Positions 6,844 to 46,860 of a DNA stretch of 64,000 bases are shown one piece after another. This DNA comes from Candidatus Pacearchaeota archaeon (GTDB taxonomy: Archaea; Nanobdellota; Nanobdellia; UBA10117; JABICX01). Below the pieces are notes generated by a model. That model worked only from the letters and a program-made list of their open reading frames with translations. It did no database searches and was not told the DNA's origin. The stretch spans positions 6,250 to 70,249 of the forward strand of contig JAFCGM010000002.1 in NCBI GenBank assembly GCA_017608025.1, in the 5' to 3' direction. A program made the translations under genes and the position numbers. Numbering within the stretch: position 1 is the stretch's first letter; the number at the start of each line of letters is the position of its first letter.

Positions 6844-7326
6844 TTACTTTTTCTTGCTTACTCCAACAGTTTTTCCTTTTCCTCTTCCTGTGCCTCTGGT
6901 TCTTTGACCTCTTGCTTTTACTTTAAGGCCTTTGTCTCCGCGAGAATGCCTATATCCGCGAAAACTCTTTATTTTCTTTAAGAATTGAATATCAAATTTT
7001 TTAGTTAAATCAAGGTCTGAAGAAATAAGGTGTCTGTCTTTTCCTGTGTCCATATCCTTTCTCCGATTCAAAAGCCATTTTGGCAATTCCTGGTTTTCAA
7101 TTCCTCGAATTGTTTCTTCTATTTTTTTTATTTCCTCTGGAGTAAAATAACCGACTTTCCTTGACTTATCAATCTCCAGAATCTTGCAGACTGCATTAGA
7201 AATCATATAACCGCAACCCTTTATTTGAGCAATTGAATTGTAAATTGAAGAAGAACCCTTAATATCTCTATCCAAAATTCTAACTAGCTCCCTAAATTCT
7301 TCCTTGGGTTGAGTTTGTTCAGCCAT
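6844..7326 (-). CDS. rps13: Ribosomal protein S13 (uS13)
   Basis: DIKGSSSIYNSIAQIKGCG motif with a basic GRGKGKT C-terminus. Start taken at MAEQTQ. Confidence 0.85.
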   Translation of the reverse strand: MAEQTQPKEEFRELVRILDRDIKGSSSIYNSIAQIKGCGYMISNAVCKILEIDKSRKVGYFTPEEIKKIEETIRGIENQELPKWLLNRRKDMDTGKDRHLISSDLDLTKKFDIQFLKKIKSFRGYRHSRGDKGLKVKARGQRTRGTGRGKGKTVGVSKKK

Positions 7327-40692: not shown

Positions 40693-41663
40693 TCAAACTT
40701 CATAATTCTGTCTTTGAAGTCTTTTTTAATTAACAAACAAACTCTGCTGCGTGGGTGCTCGTCAATTATTTTCCAATTAAGTTTTTTTGCAAGTTTTTTT
40801 GAAAATTCCTGAATATCTTTGTGATATGGCATTGCTTCTTTTGGCATTCTTTTTCTTGATGCCCCCACCCACATATAAGCCTTGATTTCAACCATTGTTT
40901 TTTCATCATTTTCTGCTGCTTTTTTAATCAAGTCGGCATAATCTTTTATGTGAGAATCATTAAATCCTTTCATTAAGGTGATTCTAAGAACTTTTCTGCA
41001 ATTAAGTTCTGGCAAAAGTTTTAGGGTTTCTTGGATTTTTTCCCAGGAATCCTTAATCAAAGGAATATTTATTTTTTTGTGCTCCTCTTTTCTCGGAGTG
41101 TCTATTGAAACATAAAGCTGTGTTGGGAGGGCATTTTCTTTTTTCAGTTTTTTGAGCATTTCTGGAACTGAACCGTTTGTTACAAGGAATGTTGTTTTTC
41201 CACGAGAATGAATTTCCTTTATTAACTCTGGAAGTTTTTTATAGAGCGTTGGTTCTCCTGTTAAAGAAATTGCAAAATGCATTGGCTCTTGGGCTTGCTT
41301 GAATTTTTTCTGATCTACATCAGCATTTCCTCCGAAACCAGAGAGTTTTCTTCTCTGGGCTATGATGCAGGCATCAATTATTTCTTTTGGTGAATCAACA
41401 TCAGAAGGCATTGAAATTCCCTGATTAAGTTCGTGGGCGCGCCAGCAGTATCTGCACTTGAAATTGCAGTAGCCGGTTGCAGGAGACATCTGGCAGCAAA
41501 GGTGGCTTCTTATTCCGTAAAACTGCTGCTTGTAACAAACTCCCTGCCCCAAAAGAGACTTTTTACACCATGAACAAATTTCAACAGAAGTGTGCGCTCC
41601 AACTACTTCATAATGCATATTTTCCAATGAATCTTTTAGTTTCTTATCCATCGATTTCATCAT
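40689..41663 (-). CDS. taw1: Radical-SAM tRNA wyosine-biosynthesis enzyme Taw1/TYW1
   Basis: CNFKCRYCWR radical-SAM cluster motif plus an N-terminal ...VGAHTSVEICSWCKKSL...CYK..FYGI.SH.C segment, the auxiliary-cluster region typical of TYW1. Confidence 0.7.
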   Translation of the reverse strand: MMKSMDKKLKDSLENMHYEVVGAHTSVEICSWCKKSLLGQGVCYKQQFYGIRSHLCCQMSPATGYCNFKCRYCWRAHELNQGISMPSDVDSPKEIIDACIIAQRRKLSGFGGNADVDQKKFKQAQEPMHFAISLTGEPTLYKKLPELIKEIHSRGKTTFLVTNGSVPEMLKKLKKENALPTQLYVSIDTPRKEEHKKINIPLIKDSWEKIQETLKLLPELNCRKVLRITLMKGFNDSHIKDYADLIKKAAENDEKTMVEIKAYMWVGASRKRMPKEAMPYHKDIQEFSKKLAKKLNWKIIDEHPRSRVCLLIKKDFKDRIMKFD

Positions 41664-41910
41664 CTATAGTCTGATAAGATTTAGAATATTTTTTACCATT
41701 AACGTCAAGGCATTTCCATACATAATATAAAATTAAAGAACCTGTAAGAGTTAATCCTACATTTGCAGCAACAGTAAGTGGTACTGAATCTCCATATTCA
41801 AGAGTTCCATTCTTTACATAATTAATTGCTTCAACAGAAATTGGAAGTAAACTTGAAACTGCTAAATGTGGAAGGTATTGTTTTAAACCCATAATAATTT
41901 TTCTAACCAA
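41644..41910 (-). CDS. Small membrane protein
   Basis: Two TM helices. Confidence 0.3.
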   Translation of the reverse strand: MVRKIIMGLKQYLPHLAVSSLLPISVEAINYVKNGTLEYGDSVPLTVAANVGLTLTGSLILYYVWKCLDVNGKKYSKSYQTIDDEIDG

Positions 41911-41950
41911 AAAAACCTTTTAAAGCTATTGGTTAAAGCGGCTTTGACGA

Positions 41951-42937
41951 TTAAAACGCCTGTTTATAGTCAGGAGCGTCTCTTGGCGAAAAATCAATCT
42001 CAATATCAAAAGAAAAAATAGCTTTCACCAAAATACAAATATTATAAACCAAACATTTCAAATACAATTCATTTACTTGAGATTCAAAGTTCTTAAAATA
42101 TAATTTAGCACCAAACTTACGCTTTAATGCACTGAAGCTTGCTTCTACATTAGACCTTTTGTGATAGTGCTTATAGAATTTACTTCTATTCTTACGGAAC
42201 AGTTCCAATGAAGTTTTCCAAACACCGCTTTTTCTCTTCATTCCACAATTACTTCTGAAAGGAATATATGGAACGCCACCATAATGATGAACCGTCTCTA
42301 AATTATGCCTAGAAGAATATGCTTTATCTCCTAATACTTCATCAATCTTGAAATTCTCAGCAGTTCTTGAAACTAACTTATCAAATTCAGGAGAATCATG
42401 ACATTCACCTGTAGTAATTTCAAGAGAAGTAATTACATTCGTAAAAATCCCACACATTGCATGACATTTAACAAATTTATGCCTGTCATTATATCCGACT
42501 CTTGAATCAAACCATCTCTCATAACTATTAGTTGAGAATCCAGTCGAATCAACTGCAAACCTAGTCTCCAAGTATTTCAAAGGCATAGCAGACATCATAA
42601 GTAAATAATTCAATGTTGGGGTCAAAGATTTTCTTCTCATGTAGTCCGTAACAGAAGAATGATGTGGGACTTTTTTAATATATCCCATATCTTTGAGAAA
42701 CCATAATTGAGATGTAAGTGTTCTTGAAGGCATCCCAAAATATAACTTCATAGCTAGGCAGAAGATTACATCCTTTTGATTGTGCATTGGACGACCTTTT
42801 TTCTTTATTGGTTCCGATACAGTTTCATCCAATAGATTTCTGAGGATTTCAACAAAGAGTCTACCTTCCTTAGTTTGCGCTTTATTGTAGGAAGTCCAGT
42901 CTCTATCTTTTGTGAATTCTTTAATTTTTGATTGCAT
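41951..42937 (-). mobile_element. IS5/IS4-superfamily DDE transposase gene (IS ends not resolved)
   Basis: DDE_Tnp_1-like blocks FAVDSTGF, LGDKAYSS, EASFSALKRKFG. Confidence 0.7.
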
Positions 42938-42959
42938 TTTTCTTTAATTTCCATTTTTG

Positions 42960-43090
42960 ATATATAGACTTTATTAGTCTAATATCTCATTATTATTAGT
43001 CTTTATAAATATTTCGAAAATGTTACTATCTTAGACTAATAACTTTTAGACTAACGAAACATTAATATATGTTTAATTAGACTATTATAT
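42960..43090. repeat. Iteron-like array of TAGACTAAT / ATTAGTCTA motifs, with palindrome tagactttattagtcta
   Basis: At least 5 copies in 130 bp, directly upstream of two small regulatory-type genes. Confidence 0.5.
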
Positions 43091-43306
43091 ATGAACGAAA
43101 AGATTCCTAAAAACGTGTTAAAGGAACTAGAATTTAAGGTTGACAAGAAGCCAATTAGGATTGCTGGAAAAATCATCGCAGAAGCTCATCAAGTTTCAAT
43201 TCGGCTTCCAAAAGAGATTAAAGCTGAATTGGATTTGTCTCAAGGTTCTCATCCTTGCGAGATTGAACTTATTGATAATAAAACATTGAAGGTGCATATA
43301 AAATGA
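43091..43306 (+). CDS. Small hypothetical protein (possible AbrB/SpoVT-like DNA binder)
   Basis: 71 aa. Its stop overlaps the next ORF's start (ATGA). Confidence 0.3.
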   Translation: MNEKIPKNVLKELEFKVDKKPIRIAGKIIAEAHQVSIRLPKEIKAELDLSQGSHPCEIELIDNKTLKVHIK

Positions 43307-43506
43307 AACCAAATTTAAAACCTATTGGAAATAAAGTACTTAGGGTTGTTGTTAATAGACGGACATTTATCAGTACAAAAGAAGTTGCTGAAAAGTCGGG
43401 CGTTTCTTGGAATACTGCTCTAACTTACTTGAGGAAGTTTTACAATAAAGGTTGGTTGTCTAAGAAGTCTGTTGGGAATCGGACTTATTGGAAGGCTAGA
43501 GTGTAA
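43303..43506 (+). CDS. Small winged-helix DNA-binding protein
   Basis: ...FISTKEVAEKSGVSWNTALTYLRKF... helix-turn-helix pattern. Confidence 0.45.
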   Translation: MKPNLKPIGNKVLRVVVNRRTFISTKEVAEKSGVSWNTALTYLRKFYNKGWLSKKSVGNRTYWKARV

Positions 43507-43534
43507 AAAAAAGAAAAATATGACTGAATAAAAT

Positions 43535-43840
43535 TTATTCATATTCAGGCAATTTTCCCAAGTTATCCTCAGCAGTATTATTTCTATCAGTTCTTATGAA
43601 TTTAATATTTCCAATAGTAACAATACCTACATCTTCTCCGTTTTTCCATTTATTATTCTTAAGTGTTGCCGTAACAAATGTTTTTCCGCTTTCAATTAAT
43701 TCAACAACTTTCTCTCTTTTTATTCTTCGTTCATTTGAGAGTTTCTCTCCAGTATCATCTCTAACTTTAACTTCGAGAATATGTCGTTTTTCATCTCTAA
43801 ATTTTACGCCTACGATTGCATAATCCGCCCATTTATCCAT
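43535..43840 (-). CDS. DUF3892-like small protein
   Basis: ...ADYAIVGVKF...ILEVKV... pattern. Low confidence. Confidence 0.3.
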   Translation of the reverse strand: MDKWADYAIVGVKFRDEKRHILEVKVRDDTGEKLSNERRIKREKVVELIESGKTFVTATLKNNKWKNGEDVGIVTIGNIKFIRTDRNNTAEDNLGKLPEYE

Positions 43841-43920
43841 TTAAATCACTATACATCTATTCTTATATCTATTTATAAAAGATTATAGCATTTAAAGTAT
43901 ACTTACTTAAACAGACAAAT

Positions 43921-44358
43921 TTAGAATGTTGTCTTACTTAAATCAATATCTTCTTCTTTTGGATAATATCTTTTTATTTCTTTAAATAACGCATTCAAAT
44001 CATGTAGATAATCACTAACTTCATTAGAAGTAAAATTTGCTTCATAAAAATTTTGATGTAATCCCTTCATATTCCGAATATATTTTCTTAGATATTCTTT
44101 TTTAATTTCTTTCACAAATTCATACATATAATCTATTACTTCTTTATGTTCAGTTAAGCGAATATTACGTGTAATTGCTAATGCTTTTAACGCTAATACG
44201 AAAGAACCCCAGAAAAATTCTGATGCTTTTTCAGGTCTGGTCTCTAGAAATTTAATACCATTCTCATAATATAAATCACTTTTATCTTTATAATGTATAA
44301 AATTTAGTAGTGCTTCACTACTCAATTTTGAGGAAGTTTCCATCTTTATCAAATACAA
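43921..44358 (-). CDS. Hypothetical protein
   Basis: 145-aa ORF with no motif. Confidence 0.3.
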   Translation of the reverse strand: MYLIKMETSSKLSSEALLNFIHYKDKSDLYYENGIKFLETRPEKASEFFWGSFVLALKALAITRNIRLTEHKEVIDYMYEFVKEIKKEYLRKYIRNMKGLHQNFYEANFTSNEVSDYLHDLNALFKEIKRYYPKEEDIDLSKTTF

Positions 44359-44636
44359 TTATCTTGAGTTTCTCTTCAACAATTCCAATATCAACTGATA
44401 CCCTCCAATTTTTATTTCCATTTGGAGGAGCTAATTTAACAACTTTGACCCAGCTATATCCTAATTTCTTTAATCGTTCGATTGCCTTATCCGCAATTAT
44501 TTCTGATGTTACTGTCATAATAAACACCTCTTTGGAACTTTTTATCATAAGAAAGATATTTAAGGATTATGATATTCAAAAGTGACCAAAAAGTTGACTT
44601 CCATACTATTATCTAAACAAATCAAGTATAAAAAGA

Positions 44637-45245
44637 TTATTCACAAACCTCTTCAGTCCTGAACTTTGTAACAGGTCGTGTTTTCTCAACATCTCTGTAT
44701 CGAATTACATTCTCACAGACTTGCTTTGTAGGGATTTCTTCAACATCAAAGTCAGTATAAACCTCTTCAGTAGGAATGTTCTTTACATATTCCCACATAA
44801 AAGTCTGTTCGTCTTCTGGTTCGATGTAATGTCTACGAATTCCACCATCAACTTCTCCACTCATGCCTTGGAAAGTCATTCTGAAAGCCCATCGTCCACC
44901 TTCATCATCCATATTTTTTAGGATAAATGTATAAATATTTTTATCTTTGACGCATTCCCATTCCTTGCAGTCTCTAGTCCAAAAACTTTCTTCAATACAG
45001 TTCTGTTCAATACATACAGTTTCCATATTTACTCCCTGAATAACCTTTGATTTTAAATTAACCGTCTCACATTCTTTGCTTGTGTAAGGTTCGCTTTCGG
45101 TGTAGGTTTCATTAAATTCATACGCTATTTGAACCTCACGACATTCAGGTACAATCGGAAGTGAAACCGTTTGCCCACCCGTAAGACAACCACTAAACAG
45201 AACGATTGTTAAGATTGAGAATATGACAATAAGTGCGGATTTCAT
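44637..45245 (-). CDS. Cys-rich secreted lipoprotein
   Basis: Signal peptide with a lipobox-like LFSGC, plus many Cys/Glu residues. Confidence 0.45.
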   Translation of the reverse strand: MKSALIVIFSILTIVLFSGCLTGGQTVSLPIVPECREVQIAYEFNETYTESEPYTSKECETVNLKSKVIQGVNMETVCIEQNCIEESFWTRDCKEWECVKDKNIYTFILKNMDDEGGRWAFRMTFQGMSGEVDGGIRRHYIEPEDEQTFMWEYVKNIPTEEVYTDFDVEEIPTKQVCENVIRYRDVEKTRPVTKFRTEEVCE

Positions 45246-45624
45246 ATAATTAATGTTTATGTATATTTATTTAAAGTTTATTATAGTTGAATATTTTGGG
45301 AAAGTATTCTTTATTTGATAAAAGAGTTTATTTTTTATAAAATTACTGAGAAAGGGAAGACTGTTCTTGAATTAATTTAGAAATTTATTAATTATTTAAG
45401 TATAACTAAAAGGATTGTAGCTATCGCTAAGCCCCATGTAGCAAAAACAAGCCATTTAGTCCACTTAAACATTTTATATTGAAGATATAAACTATGTAAT
45501 TCTTTTTCATGGTTATCTGCATGTCCATAAAAATTATACGGTTTTTTTCTAAGACTCATTACACCTTCATAGAATTCTTTCATAAATCTAAGAAATCCTT
45601 TATCAAGCGTTCCTTTATCTTCCA

Positions 45625-46104
45625 TCATACAGCACCAATCTTATCAAAATCAATATCTCTTTTTTTAGTTAAGTCTTCAGGAATCCGATATTCTTCCCAT
45701 CTCACTTTTTTCTTTTGTATGGCTTCTTTTAAATTCTGTTCAATCGGAGACAACCATGATTTTCCACTTTTTATTTCAACAAAAACAACTTCTTCAATTT
45801 CTTTCTTATCCATACCTTTGAATACAATTAAGTCGATTGGCTTTCCTACAAATCTACATTCAGTAGGTAAATGCTTAAAATCTGGAAGGAATGGTGCTAA
45901 TTGCTCGGAAAATTGACCTCCGAGAACTGCTCTTGACTTTAGAATTGCATCTTTTCTTTGGTTTGGAAGTTCAGATTCCCAGTATATATCTCGTTTGAAA
46001 GCTCCACTTTTCTGTCCGAAGTTGTATGCTGCGATGATACCAATTAGGAACAATGCGATTACTATTATAATTATGAATTCCATTAAAAACAAGTAGCTAC
46101 GCAA
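45625..46104 (-). CDS. Membrane-anchored PD-(D/E)xK nuclease-fold protein
   Basis: N-terminal TM helix. IDLIVF...VVFVEIKSGKS fits the D...ExK motif. Confidence 0.4.
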   Translation of the reverse strand: MRSYLFLMEFIIIIVIALFLIGIIAAYNFGQKSGAFKRDIYWESELPNQRKDAILKSRAVLGGQFSEQLAPFLPDFKHLPTECRFVGKPIDLIVFKGMDKKEIEEVVFVEIKSGKSWLSPIEQNLKEAIQKKKVRWEEYRIPEDLTKKRDIDFDKIGAV

Positions 46105-46155
46105 ACGTTAAAAGTCTTTATTTTTCGCCAAGAGCAAGTTAGTTTGTATTATTCG

Positions 46156-46860
46156 TCAAAGCTGGTTAAAGCATCTCTTGAAGTTCTTTTCGATCTGTTC
46201 CTCAACATCTTCTGGGGAGAACTTCTTTATTCTGGCAATCTCCCTAATTACTTTTTTTATGCTTGTTTTTGGGTTGTCTGTTATATACGGGAAATCTGTT
46301 TCTGTTAAGATTCGCGAAAGAGGAACTATTTCAACTAGCTTCTTAACTTCTGGATACTTGAAGATGAAAGTGTTGATTGAAAAGTAGAATTTAGACTTTA
46401 TGTCTTCAATTAATTCTGGGTTTCCTGTGTATGAATGAATTACTGCCTTTCCATTATAATTTTTAAGCATTTTTGCAACTACTCCTTCTGCCTGCCTGCA
46501 GTGTATAATCACTGGCTTGTTTATCTGCTTTGCAAGCTTCAGAATTTCGCTGAAGTATTTTTTGTGCACAGGCCTTTCTGTTTTTGATGAATATTTATAG
46601 TCAAGCCCTACTTCGCCGACTGCGACTATTTTGTTTTTTTTATTTTTTATTTCTTCAAACTCGGCATAAATTTCCTTTTCAAGATATTCGGAAAATCTTG
46701 TTGGATGGAAACCGATTGCTGCAAAAACATTTTCATATTTTTCAGAAAATTTTAGAACTTCTTTATTTGACTCTGGGTCAAGACCGTTTACTATTACAGG
46801 AATGTTCTTGTATTTTTTAAAATCTTTTTCTTTTGCATGTGAATGTGCGTCGTATAGCAT
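46156..46860 (-). CDS. tatD: TatD-family deoxyribonuclease/hydrolase
   Basis: MLYDAHSHA..., HCRQAEG, VIHSYTG and TETDFPYI TatD motifs. The upstream extension in the ORF track is repeat-derived. Confidence 0.8.
   Translation of the reverse strand: MLYDAHSHAKEKDFKKYKNIPVIVNGLDPESNKEVLKFSEKYENVFAAIGFHPTRFSEYLEKEIYAEFEEIKNKKNKIVAVGEVGLDYKYSSKTERPVHKKYFSEILKLAKQINKPVIIHCRQAEGVVAKMLKNYNGKAVIHSYTGNPELIEDIKSKFYFSINTFIFKYPEVKKLVEIVPLSRILTETDFPYITDNPKTSIKKVIREIARIKKFSPEDVEEQIEKNFKRCFNQL

Follow-up and report, generated by a model that had tools for sequence, protein, structure and literature searches.

The window analysed here is a 64-kb stretch of low-GC DNA (about 33% guanine plus cytosine) from a DPANN archaeon, Candidatus Pacearchaeota (contig JAFCGM010000002.1, positions 6,250 to 70,249). 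In it, an island with a transposase gene, a divergent pair of small genes, an intergenic repeat array and six passenger genes lies between taw1 and tatD. The native neighbours of this island are an 88-aa membrane-protein gene located before taw1 (41644-41910, minus strand) and tatD itself (46156-46860, minus strand), with nine island open reading frames (ORFs) between them. The 88-aa gene adjoining taw1 is native and not part of the island. Positions 41940-46163 very probably constitute one unit transposon, or transporter insertion sequence (IS), of 4,224 bp with an IS5-family, IS903-group-type DDE transposase. The features that delimit it are as follows.

41931-41939: target-site duplication (TSD) copy 1, GGTTAAAGC; the same 9-mer abuts both element ends
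41940-41997: transposase-proximal terminal inverted repeat; terminal motif GGCTTTGACGA (41940-41950), subterminal motif CTCTTGGCGAAAAAT (41980-41994)
41951-42937, minus strand: IS5-family (IS903-group-like) DDE transposase, 328 aa (NCBIfam transpos_IS5_2, Pfam DDE_Tnp_1)
46106-46163: distal terminal inverted repeat; terminal motif AGCTTTGACGA (reverse complement of 46153-46163), subterminal motif CTCTTGGCGAAAAAT (reverse complement of 46120-46134)
46164-46172: TSD copy 2, GGTTAAAGC, within the tatD C-terminal codons C-F-N

Extent of the element and its insertion at tatD

A preliminary description of the locus had recognised an IS5-family DDE transposase, and profile searches bear this out (NCBIfam transpos_IS5_2 score of 167.7 bits against a cut-off of 140; Pfam DDE_Tnp_1 E of 4e-22). 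The catalytic residues D130, D204 and E265 are intact and the Y-2-R-3-E-6-K signature (Y258-R261-E265-K272) is present, all of them invariant across the family alignment. Exact-protein look-ups of the transposase and of Taw1 returned no match. Among 72,556 plasmids, the best matches to the transposase are bacterial IS5-family elements with approximately 28% identity.

A repeat search of the window found two inverted repeat pairs exactly at the island edges. The island of the preliminary description is real, with its edges at 41940-46163 rather than 41951-46104. The terminal inverted repeats are approximately 58 nt long and imperfect; both have the terminal motif (G/A)GCTTTGACGA and, subterminally, the identical 15-nt motif CTCTTGGCGAAAAAT. 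Read inward, the transposase-proximal end is GGCTTTGACGATTAAAAC…CTCTTGGCGAAAAAT (41940-41997) and the distal end is AGCTTTGACGAATAATAC…CTCTTGGCGAAAAAT (reverse complement of 46106-46163); their outermost bases are mismatched (A/G), as in the related element of locus L006. The transposase-proximal repeat overlaps the final 15 codons and the stop codon of the transposase gene. Within the 64-kb window, the terminal and subterminal motifs are confined to the two element ends, and a perfect 9-bp duplication flanks the entire 4.2 kb. Neither an end-like sequence nor an inverted repeat was found in the window beside the 5′-end of the transposase gene, so that the sole partner of the transposase-proximal end is the one 4.2 kb away. 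An IS accompanied by unrelated orphan genes was rejected as the make-up of the island, one end pair and one duplication enclosing all of it.

Of the checks proposed in the preliminary description, base composition did not separate the island from its host (GC of 0.312 vs. 0.335, standard deviation 0.014, with third codon positions behaving likewise). The search for attachment sites and inverted repeats yielded the terminal inverted repeats and the 9-bp TSD, and no tRNA-type attachment site. Rfam and tRNA scans found nothing inside the island, the nearest tRNA gene being 12 kb away; the direct-repeat list of the window held chance pairs only, and Tandem Repeats Finder reported nothing relevant. 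A low-scoring tandem repeat, TTCTTTAATTT, is present in three copies at 42917-42950, across the transposase start codon region, and is likely compositional.

Two relatives retain the uninterrupted site. The sole relative with Taw1 found in the genome collection is a Candidatus Woesearchaeota metagenome-assembled genome (78% identity). A Woesearchaeota contig (L001) has the same order as the window, comprising genes for SepF, a 65-aa protein, a methyltransferase, TatD, the small membrane protein, Taw1 and a coiled-coil protein, with only 24 bp between tatD and the small membrane gene. A closer relative, L089 (GCA_964558255.1), encodes a 233-aa TatD with 82% identity and has a 33-bp gap between tatD and the small membrane gene. 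No blastn or tblastx match to the island was found in L001 or L089. Its accessory and mobile-derived character, as originally proposed, is thereby upheld: the island is missing from both relatives, and the empty site is legible down to single nucleotides. Syntenic conservation in all relatives, which the preliminary description had named as contrary evidence, was not observed.

The element is inserted at the last codon of tatD. From the duplication, an uninterrupted tatD was forecast to end in …CFNQ-stop, with which the L089 protein end agrees exactly (KKCFNQ* vs. KRCFNQL* in the window). L089 carries a single copy of the 9-mer, GCTTCAACC on the tatD strand, and when the element and one 9-mer are removed the window is colinear with L089 through the junction (ATGCTTTAACCAATAGCTTTAAAAG vs. 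ATGCTTCAACCAATAACCTTAAAAG). The same deletion brings back the tatD 3′-end of the relatives (…CFNQ-stop) and a spacer of approximately 30 bp to the next gene; the insert-free junction in the source would read GCTTTAACC-AATAG. The present tatD stop codon, TGA (46156-46158), and the preceding Leu codon come from the distal end of the element, and the promoter-like TTTAAAAG box of the downstream gene is intact and lies outside the duplication. As the element end supplies a stop codon and the TTTAAAAG box is retained, the insertion would have been nearly neutral for the host, at the cost of one additional TatD residue.

Two further details of the flanking genes were noted. The ORF-finder start of the 88-aa membrane protein (TTG 41910) is probably wrong; a start at ATG 41892 (MGLKQYLPHL…) agrees with those of the orthologs in L001 and L089, and a promoter-like TTTAAAAG box then remains approximately 30 nt upstream of it. 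The L001 TatD has a lysine/asparagine-rich C-terminal extension of approximately 40 residues (L001:7240-7387), found in neither the window nor the L089 protein, probably because the stop codon was lost and translation runs on into the AT-rich spacer.

IS903-group elements are approximately 1,050 bp long and generate 9-bp direct repeats (PMC3281130 Table 2). Like members such as ISPam1, ISPpa8 and ISAav2, the window element combines an IS5-family DDE/YREK transposase, whose stop codon lies near one end, with a 9-bp direct duplication and GGC(TTTG…)-type termini (GGCTTTGACGA / AGCTTTGACGA). The end of bacterial ISAav2, GGGCTTTGTTGCATAAATCGG (starting GGGCTTTGTTGCA…), resembles the archaeal end GGCTTTGCACAATAAATCC of the related element in L004. 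GGC ends are a hallmark of the IS903 group. Unlike the compact single-ORF form of 0.95-1.15 kb (approximately 1.05 kb with inverted repeats of 15-27 bp in PMC3281130), the window element is 4,224 bp long, has nine ORFs and ends of approximately 58 nt, and adds a second subterminal site and its own DNA-binding proteins. The machinery is that of the IS903 group, yet the element is not a classical IS903-group insertion sequence, being four times the usual size.

Related elements in other genomes

The nearest homologs of the transposase share 48-56% identity with it and were placed in their contigs; their source labels include Micrarchaeota, Nanoarchaeota, Pyrinomonadaceae and Dehalococcoidia. A terminus, TGTGCAAAGCC, directly follows the transposase stop codon in L005 and L006, with a one-base variant in L007 and L002. 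In L002, L006 and L004, the partner end lies far upstream of the transposase gene, delimiting the following elements.

L002: 4,468 bp, TSD GTTTTGCCT
L006: 6,419 bp, TSD ATAATAACA
L004: 3,492 bp, no TSD found

A metagenome scan contributed 80 further loci. A motif-free caller, which required a terminal inverted repeat (at least 12 of 16 positions) around a transposase gene with a perfect 9-bp duplication directly outside it, produced 23 matches, 21 of which begin with (G/A)GCTTTGCA… (GGCTTTGCA-type) and span 2,674-9,738 bp. Shifted-register controls gave approximately two matches per register, equal to the two junk matches. When the duplication was not required, the far end was at least 1.5 kb from the transposase gene in 37 of the 47 loci whose motif could be recognised. 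Among 86 loci, none offered a convincing plain IS; L019 was considered as one and rejected, its putative near end not matching the far end.

A 4,154-bp element of identical length and termini occurs at two targets, with TSD TACCAGTGT in L060 (L060:762-4915) and GGTTTTGGC in L062 and L063 (L062:403-4556, L063:6838-10991). These copies come from different metagenomes, and the one in L060 encodes an 819-aa restriction-modification (R-M)-type enzyme. Since this element occupies two different targets, members of the family are mobile as whole units. Movement of the window element as a unit is indicated by the duplication around the whole, the empty sites in relatives and this family member at two sites; the window's own element is known from one site, the two-site evidence being that of L060 vs. 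L062/L063.

Many elements of the family are far lower in GC than their flanks, and their cargo consists mainly of R-M and defence genes. When 101 cargo ORFs of 18 elements were assigned to Pfam families, the dominant ones were N6, N4 and C5 DNA methylases, Eco57I, EcoRI methylase, HSDR_N, TaqI_C, HNH, Vsr, GmrSD, PDDEXK, Schlafen/AlbA_2, SocA-Panacea and Hypoth_Ymh. The smallest complete element, in L036 (2,674 bp), comprises a transposase gene, a regulator pair and one cargo gene.

Several members have individual peculiarities. The 6.4-kb element at L006:1616-8034 (= L009:3648-10066) carries a seemingly complete C5-methylase/Vsr/HNH module, together with genes for an ORC/Cdc6-like ATPase and a PDDEXK nuclease; L006 and L009 represent the same insertion with the same TSD in ENA and JGI assemblies. 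The 3.5-kb member at L004:5016-8507 has family-type ends without a 9-bp duplication and an extra MazE-like gene downstream of the transposase gene. It resides on a virus- or plasmid-like contig with many tiny ORFs and a gene for a D5-type primase-helicase, a possible vehicle for the cell-to-cell spread of these transposons. The L002 element is found in a second Woesearchaeota-like chromosome, and has a transposase with 53% identity and the TAGACTA motif that also occurs in the window. It sits in a variable stretch between the archease and Pcc1 genes (L002:3190-9900). A ParE/YafQ-type toxin gene in this stretch, not enclosed by the transposon, suggests that accessory genes accumulate at a local hotspot. 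In L005, a 165-aa ORF for a DNA-polymerase-B-type 3′-5′ exonuclease (L005:797-1294) lies between the regulator pair and the transposase gene, overlapping the transposase start, an unusual internal place for cargo. The 12-mer ACGAATAATACA of the distal end in the window (46143-46160) recurs upstream of the L004 transposase gene (about 6950-6975), and TACGAATAA-type repeats hold the equivalent position in L006 (about 6925-6995). These copies may be internal transposase sites, relics of an inner end or chance occurrences in AT-rich DNA.

Putative regulator gene pair and TAGACTA array

Between the transposase gene and the first passenger gene, the window element contains the following features.

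42965-43084: array of six (T/A)AGACT(A/T) sites, putative operator (42965+, 42975-, 42997-, 43032+, 43047+, 43078+)
43091-43306, plus strand: 71-aa small protein, probably an AbrB/MazE-like DNA binder, first gene of the pair (family alignment, hidden Markov model (HMM) matches)
43303-43506, plus strand: 67-aa winged-helix DNA-binding protein, second gene of the pair (near-threshold Pfam winged helix-turn-helix (wHTH) matches, family profile)

The overlapping small-protein/wHTH pair of the preliminary description was recovered, with an ATGA overlap and weak wHTH matches. For the 67-aa protein, Pfam HTH_24, Sulfolobus_pRN and Penicillinase_R fall just below their cut-offs, and its family profile matches solved wHTH regulators (PH1519, NsrR, BlaI/MecI and AspA, E of 2e-4 to 2e-3). 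Homologs in the same position share 31-38% identity in L004, L005 and L006, and 21% in L036. The alignment of the 71-aa family has a common motif, KQxxIRIPxEI; two of its five members match MazE_antitoxin (PF04014) below threshold (E of 0.013), and a profile search against PDB gave 3o27 and 7xi6 with E of about 0.05. The single-sequence AlphaFold2 model of the 71-aa protein was too poor for use (predicted local distance difference test (pLDDT) of 61), and a word-indexed homolog search with it returned only itself.

These small genes had been described as orphans, which they are not. Their homologs form an adjacent pair divergent from the transposase gene in L004, L005, L006 and L036, and HMMs built from the pair detected the same adjacent, divergent arrangement in six non-seed loci (L017, L018, L040, L047, L051 and L076). 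Because of this recurrence, the pair is regarded as core equipment of a subclade rather than as a captured plasmid module.

The preliminary description had reported five or more copies of a 9-nt repeat at 42960-43090. Six sites with an AGACT core are indeed present, and only two copies match the full 9-mer exactly. Exact TAGACTA heptamers number four in 64 kb, all of them in the 153-bp intergenic region 42938-43090 (expected 0.01, Poisson probability of approximately 3e-10). The array spans both divergent promoter-like regions between the transposase gene and the regulator pair. The sites coincide with TATA-like boxes, one centred 25.5 nt upstream of ATG 43091 (71-aa gene) and the other 27.5 nt upstream of ATG 42937 (transposase gene), distances that would suit leaderless transcription in archaea. 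Sites 1 and 2 lie on the transposase TATA box and TFIIB recognition element (BRE). In the regulator promoter, site 5 borders the BRE and site 6 falls in the interval from the TATA box to the start codon. Arrays in the corresponding intergenic regions of other elements are listed below; elements without the pair are mostly without arrays.

L040, L047: TAGACTA x4 (0 of 300 shuffles)
L002: TAGACTA x3
L076: TAGACTA x2
L017, L018: TTATGGG x4
L051: ATTAGGT x3

On these sequence features, the array may well serve the encoded regulators as a set of operators, through which the transposase gene is repressed and the pair controls itself; confidence in this reading is moderate. The window regulators are closest to those of L040, which also has TAGACTA. 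In the other regulator group, a handful of motif switches go together with exchanges in the recognition helix of the wHTH protein (N/Q, V, T) and in the AbrB-like strand (V, S, C). As the same arrangement recurs in independent elements, the array is most likely an operator rather than a set of iterons. The iteron-like replication-regulation module envisaged in the preliminary description is unlikely, the array and the pair being a conserved part of the family that is always divergent from the transposase gene. Under the proposed mechanism, the transposase would bind the terminal and subterminal sites (GCTTTGACGA/CTTGGCGA) at both ends, and DDE chemistry with 9-bp staggered target cuts would move the whole unit. 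The 71-aa AbrB-like and 67-aa wHTH proteins would bind the six TAGACTA sites over the promoter-like TATA/BRE elements of both operons, repressing the transposase gene, autoregulating the pair and keeping transposition rare. Small DNA binders encoded divergently from a transposition gene, with multiple sites over a shared promoter, are also seen in the Mu c repressor/operator system and in Tn3-family TnpR/res. The pair resembles archaeal plasmid and virus regulators in sequence (pRN-type; 3o27 and 7xi6 proteins). Unlike Mu c and TnpR, to which it shows no homology, the pair gives no indication of a resolvase function, and its DNA binding is a prediction.

Some observations speak against an operator role. 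No significant array was found in four pair-bearing elements (L004, L005, L006 and L036). TAGACTA accompanies three rather different regulator sets (window/L040; L047/L076; a DUF2080 type in L002), and clean co-variation of regulator and motif was looked for at whole-protein level and not found. For the 71-aa protein itself, an AbrB-like fold is weakly suggested by its matches. The array could instead bind the transposase or a host factor, act as a transpositional enhancer (cf. the Mu operator/internal activation sequence) or serve autoregulation of the small genes alone. The occurrence of one motif with divergent regulator sets favours such a role, as does L002, which has a DUF2080-type small protein instead of the pair and an array that abuts this small gene rather than the transposase gene. 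The TACGAATAA repeats in the equivalent region of L004 and L006, which resemble the window's own terminal repeat, point the same way. However, the end motifs of the window (GACGA) and L002 (GCACA) differ while the array motif is identical, so that the specificity with which the transposase binds the ends does not account for the array. Significant arrays are moreover found mainly in elements that encode the pair, and the motif switches among close regulators track the recognition-helix and strand changes described above. An enhancer or transposase-binding function is the strongest competitor of the operator reading, and a role other than that of a repressor operator is considered unlikely.

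Alternative readings, cargo and significance

The reading of the whole island as one transposon has to be weighed against three others. The first holds that an ordinary IS of approximately 1.1 kb lies next to an independent accessory islet, the distal repeat being a solo end, the remnant of a decayed composite or a surrogate end used once. The presence of a single transposase gene would suit it, as would the size and single ORF of classical IS903-group elements (approximately 1.05 kb). It is made very improbable by the missing end motif near the transposase 5′-end, and by a distal end that has both the terminal motif and the exact 15-nt subterminal motif and that closes a duplication around all 4.2 kb. 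The distal end has no transposase fragment nearby; counted inward from its innermost mapped repeat block (46117-46134), the first ORF begins after 22-43 bp. The far end is distal in 21 relatives too, and the 86 loci held no convincing plain IS.

The preliminary description had also considered an integrated plasmid or provirus remnant, in which the array would be an iteron origin under small DNA binders and the 9-bp repeat the core of an attachment site. In its favour, the 67-aa wHTH protein scores 20.6 bits, against a cut-off of 20.8, with the Pfam family of the Sulfolobus plasmid regulatory protein, and the weak 71-aa PDB matches 3o27 and 7xi6 are small proteins of Sulfolobus plasmid-viruses. 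The phage protein family matched by DUF3892 fits this origin as well, as does the sister element L004, found on a contig with a D5-type primase-helicase. Against this, searches of the island proteins in Pfam, NCBIfam and PHROGs gave no match to a Rep, primase, helicase, integrase, partition or capsid protein. There is no tRNA gene or long attachment-type repeat at the island. The direct repeat measures exactly 9 bp, and the inverted repeats next to it are homologous to the ends of IS903-group elements. In independent elements, including L004, the array and pair are always within transposon ends beside the transposase gene. This origin is largely refuted and retains only a slight probability. 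Least credible of all, an ancestral island precisely deleted in the relatives could draw on only two relatives having been compared, but would require precise loss twice independently, leaving one 9-bp copy and an intact tatD stop each time, and is at odds with the insertion signature of inverted ends, duplicated host coding sequence and a tatD stop now supplied by the element.

Some observations do weigh against the single-transposon interpretation. Two relatives (L001 and L089) make up the presence/absence comparison, and outside the two motifs the likeness of the ends drops to approximately 80%. Neither the element nor its ends recur elsewhere in the 64-kb window, and the protein cluster of the transposase has one member; current activity of the element is therefore only putative.

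Besides the transposase gene and the regulator pair, the element carries six passenger genes.

43535-43840, minus strand: DUF3892 protein, 101 aa (Pfam PF13031, E 1.2e-9; phrog_32719, E 1.8e-21)
43921-44343, minus strand: PaREP1-family (HEPN-T clade) protein, about 140 aa, candidate toxin/effector (PF05942, 36.1 bits, cut-off 24.4)
44318-44548, minus strand: 76-aa PaREP1 partner, overlapping upstream gene, candidate neutraliser (standalone homologs; L091)
44637-45245, minus strand: 202-aa secreted Cys-rich protein, lipobox-like (LFSGC; signal sequence, Cys20 and 8 further Cys)
45392-45628, minus strand: 78-aa protein with a C-terminal transmembrane helix, ATGA-coupled to the nuclease gene; no family match
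45625-46083, minus strand: N-terminally membrane-anchored PD-(D/E)xK nuclease (Endonuc_Holl), about 152 aa from ATG 46083 (PF10107, E 2.9e-33)

The DUF3892-like gene (E of 1e-9), the lipobox-like FSGC protein with nine Cys and the membrane-anchored nuclease-fold protein (Endonuc_Holl, E of 3e-33) had all been correctly recognised beforehand. The inverted repeats and 9-bp duplication, the PaREP1 gene, its 76-aa partner and the 78-aa transmembrane protein were absent from that account. The DUF3892 match, phrog_32719, is a phage protein family of unknown function. The Endonuc_Holl protein has a transmembrane segment, MEFIIIIVIALFLIGIIAAYNFG, and the motif PID…VEIK in its translation, and the 202-aa protein had no family match in Pfam, NCBIfam, PADLOC or PHROGs. 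Searches of PaREP1, Endonuc_Holl, DUF3892 and the 76-aa protein against sequences of solved structures gave nothing significant.

PaREP1 has been assigned to the HEPN-T clade of the HEPN superfamily (PMC3710099). Standalone homologs of its 76-aa partner are 64-70 aa long with 28-39% identity. In L091, the 76-aa homolog is followed by an overlapping PaREP1 gene, and because this overlapping arrangement is repeated there, PaREP1 and the 76-aa protein are viewed as a conserved two-gene module with a toxin-antitoxin-like layout. In L090, the ORF downstream of the 76-aa homolog shows no similarity. The AlphaFold2 model of the 76-aa protein (pLDDT of 86.4) has one helix and four strands in a cystatin/PepSY-like arrangement, for which the best Foldseek match, a cystatin-fold protein (TM-score of 0.61), is non-significant. 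Matches to large TAL, Myb and WD40 repeat proteins in an exhaustive search were judged spurious.

The cargo genes would be passengers that pay the element's way through addiction, defence or surface functions, and by analogy with the sister elements, from which this assignment is drawn, such functions are probable. Counting against it, PADLOC gave no defence match for the window cargo, only sub-significant wHTH-type ones. The defence-related islet that the preliminary description had suggested gains partial support from the mostly R-M and defence cargo of the family, while the window cargo itself lacks a PADLOC match.

A transporter IS (tIS) is an IS derivative with passenger genes (PMC9330008); the concept also appears in the IS1595 paper, as far as that is cited in PMC2853133. 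Like a tIS, the window element encloses its passengers with a single IS-type transposase gene in one inverted repeat pair, and one target duplication surrounds the whole. Furuta, Abe and Kobayashi (2010) described transposon-like R-M units with inverted repeats and short target duplications; those with linked mobility genes were removed beforehand, and no archaeal case was left after the filter (PMC2853133). The sister elements in L006, L021, L025, L028, L060 and L080 likewise hold R-M genes in units bounded by inverted repeats with 8-9 bp duplications. Unlike the Furuta units, the transposase gene lies within the unit here, and the window copy is without R-M genes. Another precedent for IS903-type machinery moving extra genes is Tn903, a composite transposon of two IS903 copies. 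Unlike Tn903, the window element has a single transposase gene, and neither another IS copy nor the remains of one is present.

The papers searched yielded no IS903-group tIS family, no archaeal or DPANN members and none with a regulator pair and operator-like array, ISfinder and TnCentral entries not being thereby excluded. For IS903-type carriers with defence cargo and a regulator/operator module they offered no more than conceptual precedents, and passenger genes and IS903 both go unmentioned in a 2026 survey of ISs in archaea. What seems new is the IS903-type carrier family with its regulator/array module, the tIS concept itself being already established.

Tentatively, the window element can be seen as an archaeal member of a large, undescribed IS903-derived carrier clade in which the cargo-bearing form (2.7-9.7 kb) is the rule. 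Such a clade might shuttle R-M, toxin-antitoxin-like and conflict genes among DPANN archaea, bacteria and plasmids or viruses, with one subclade using an AbrB-like/wHTH repressor pair and lineage-specific operator arrays to throttle its transposase. If true, this would be a self-regulated vehicle for defence genes, of a type new for the IS5 family and for archaea. At the locus itself, an orphan island becomes a precisely delimited mobile element with a reconstructable insertion, settling how nine genes and the 3′-end of tatD are to be annotated. The IS5/IS903 machinery is usually seen as a minimal 1-kb insertion sequence; here it is found in widespread multi-kilobase carriers with mostly R-M and defence cargo, which extend to the tiny genomes of DPANN archaea, whose routes of gene acquisition are poorly understood. 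The module of transposase, regulators and operator array offers a compact, testable example of self-limiting transposition in archaea, and the defined ends and transposase could seed genetic tools for organisms that currently have none.

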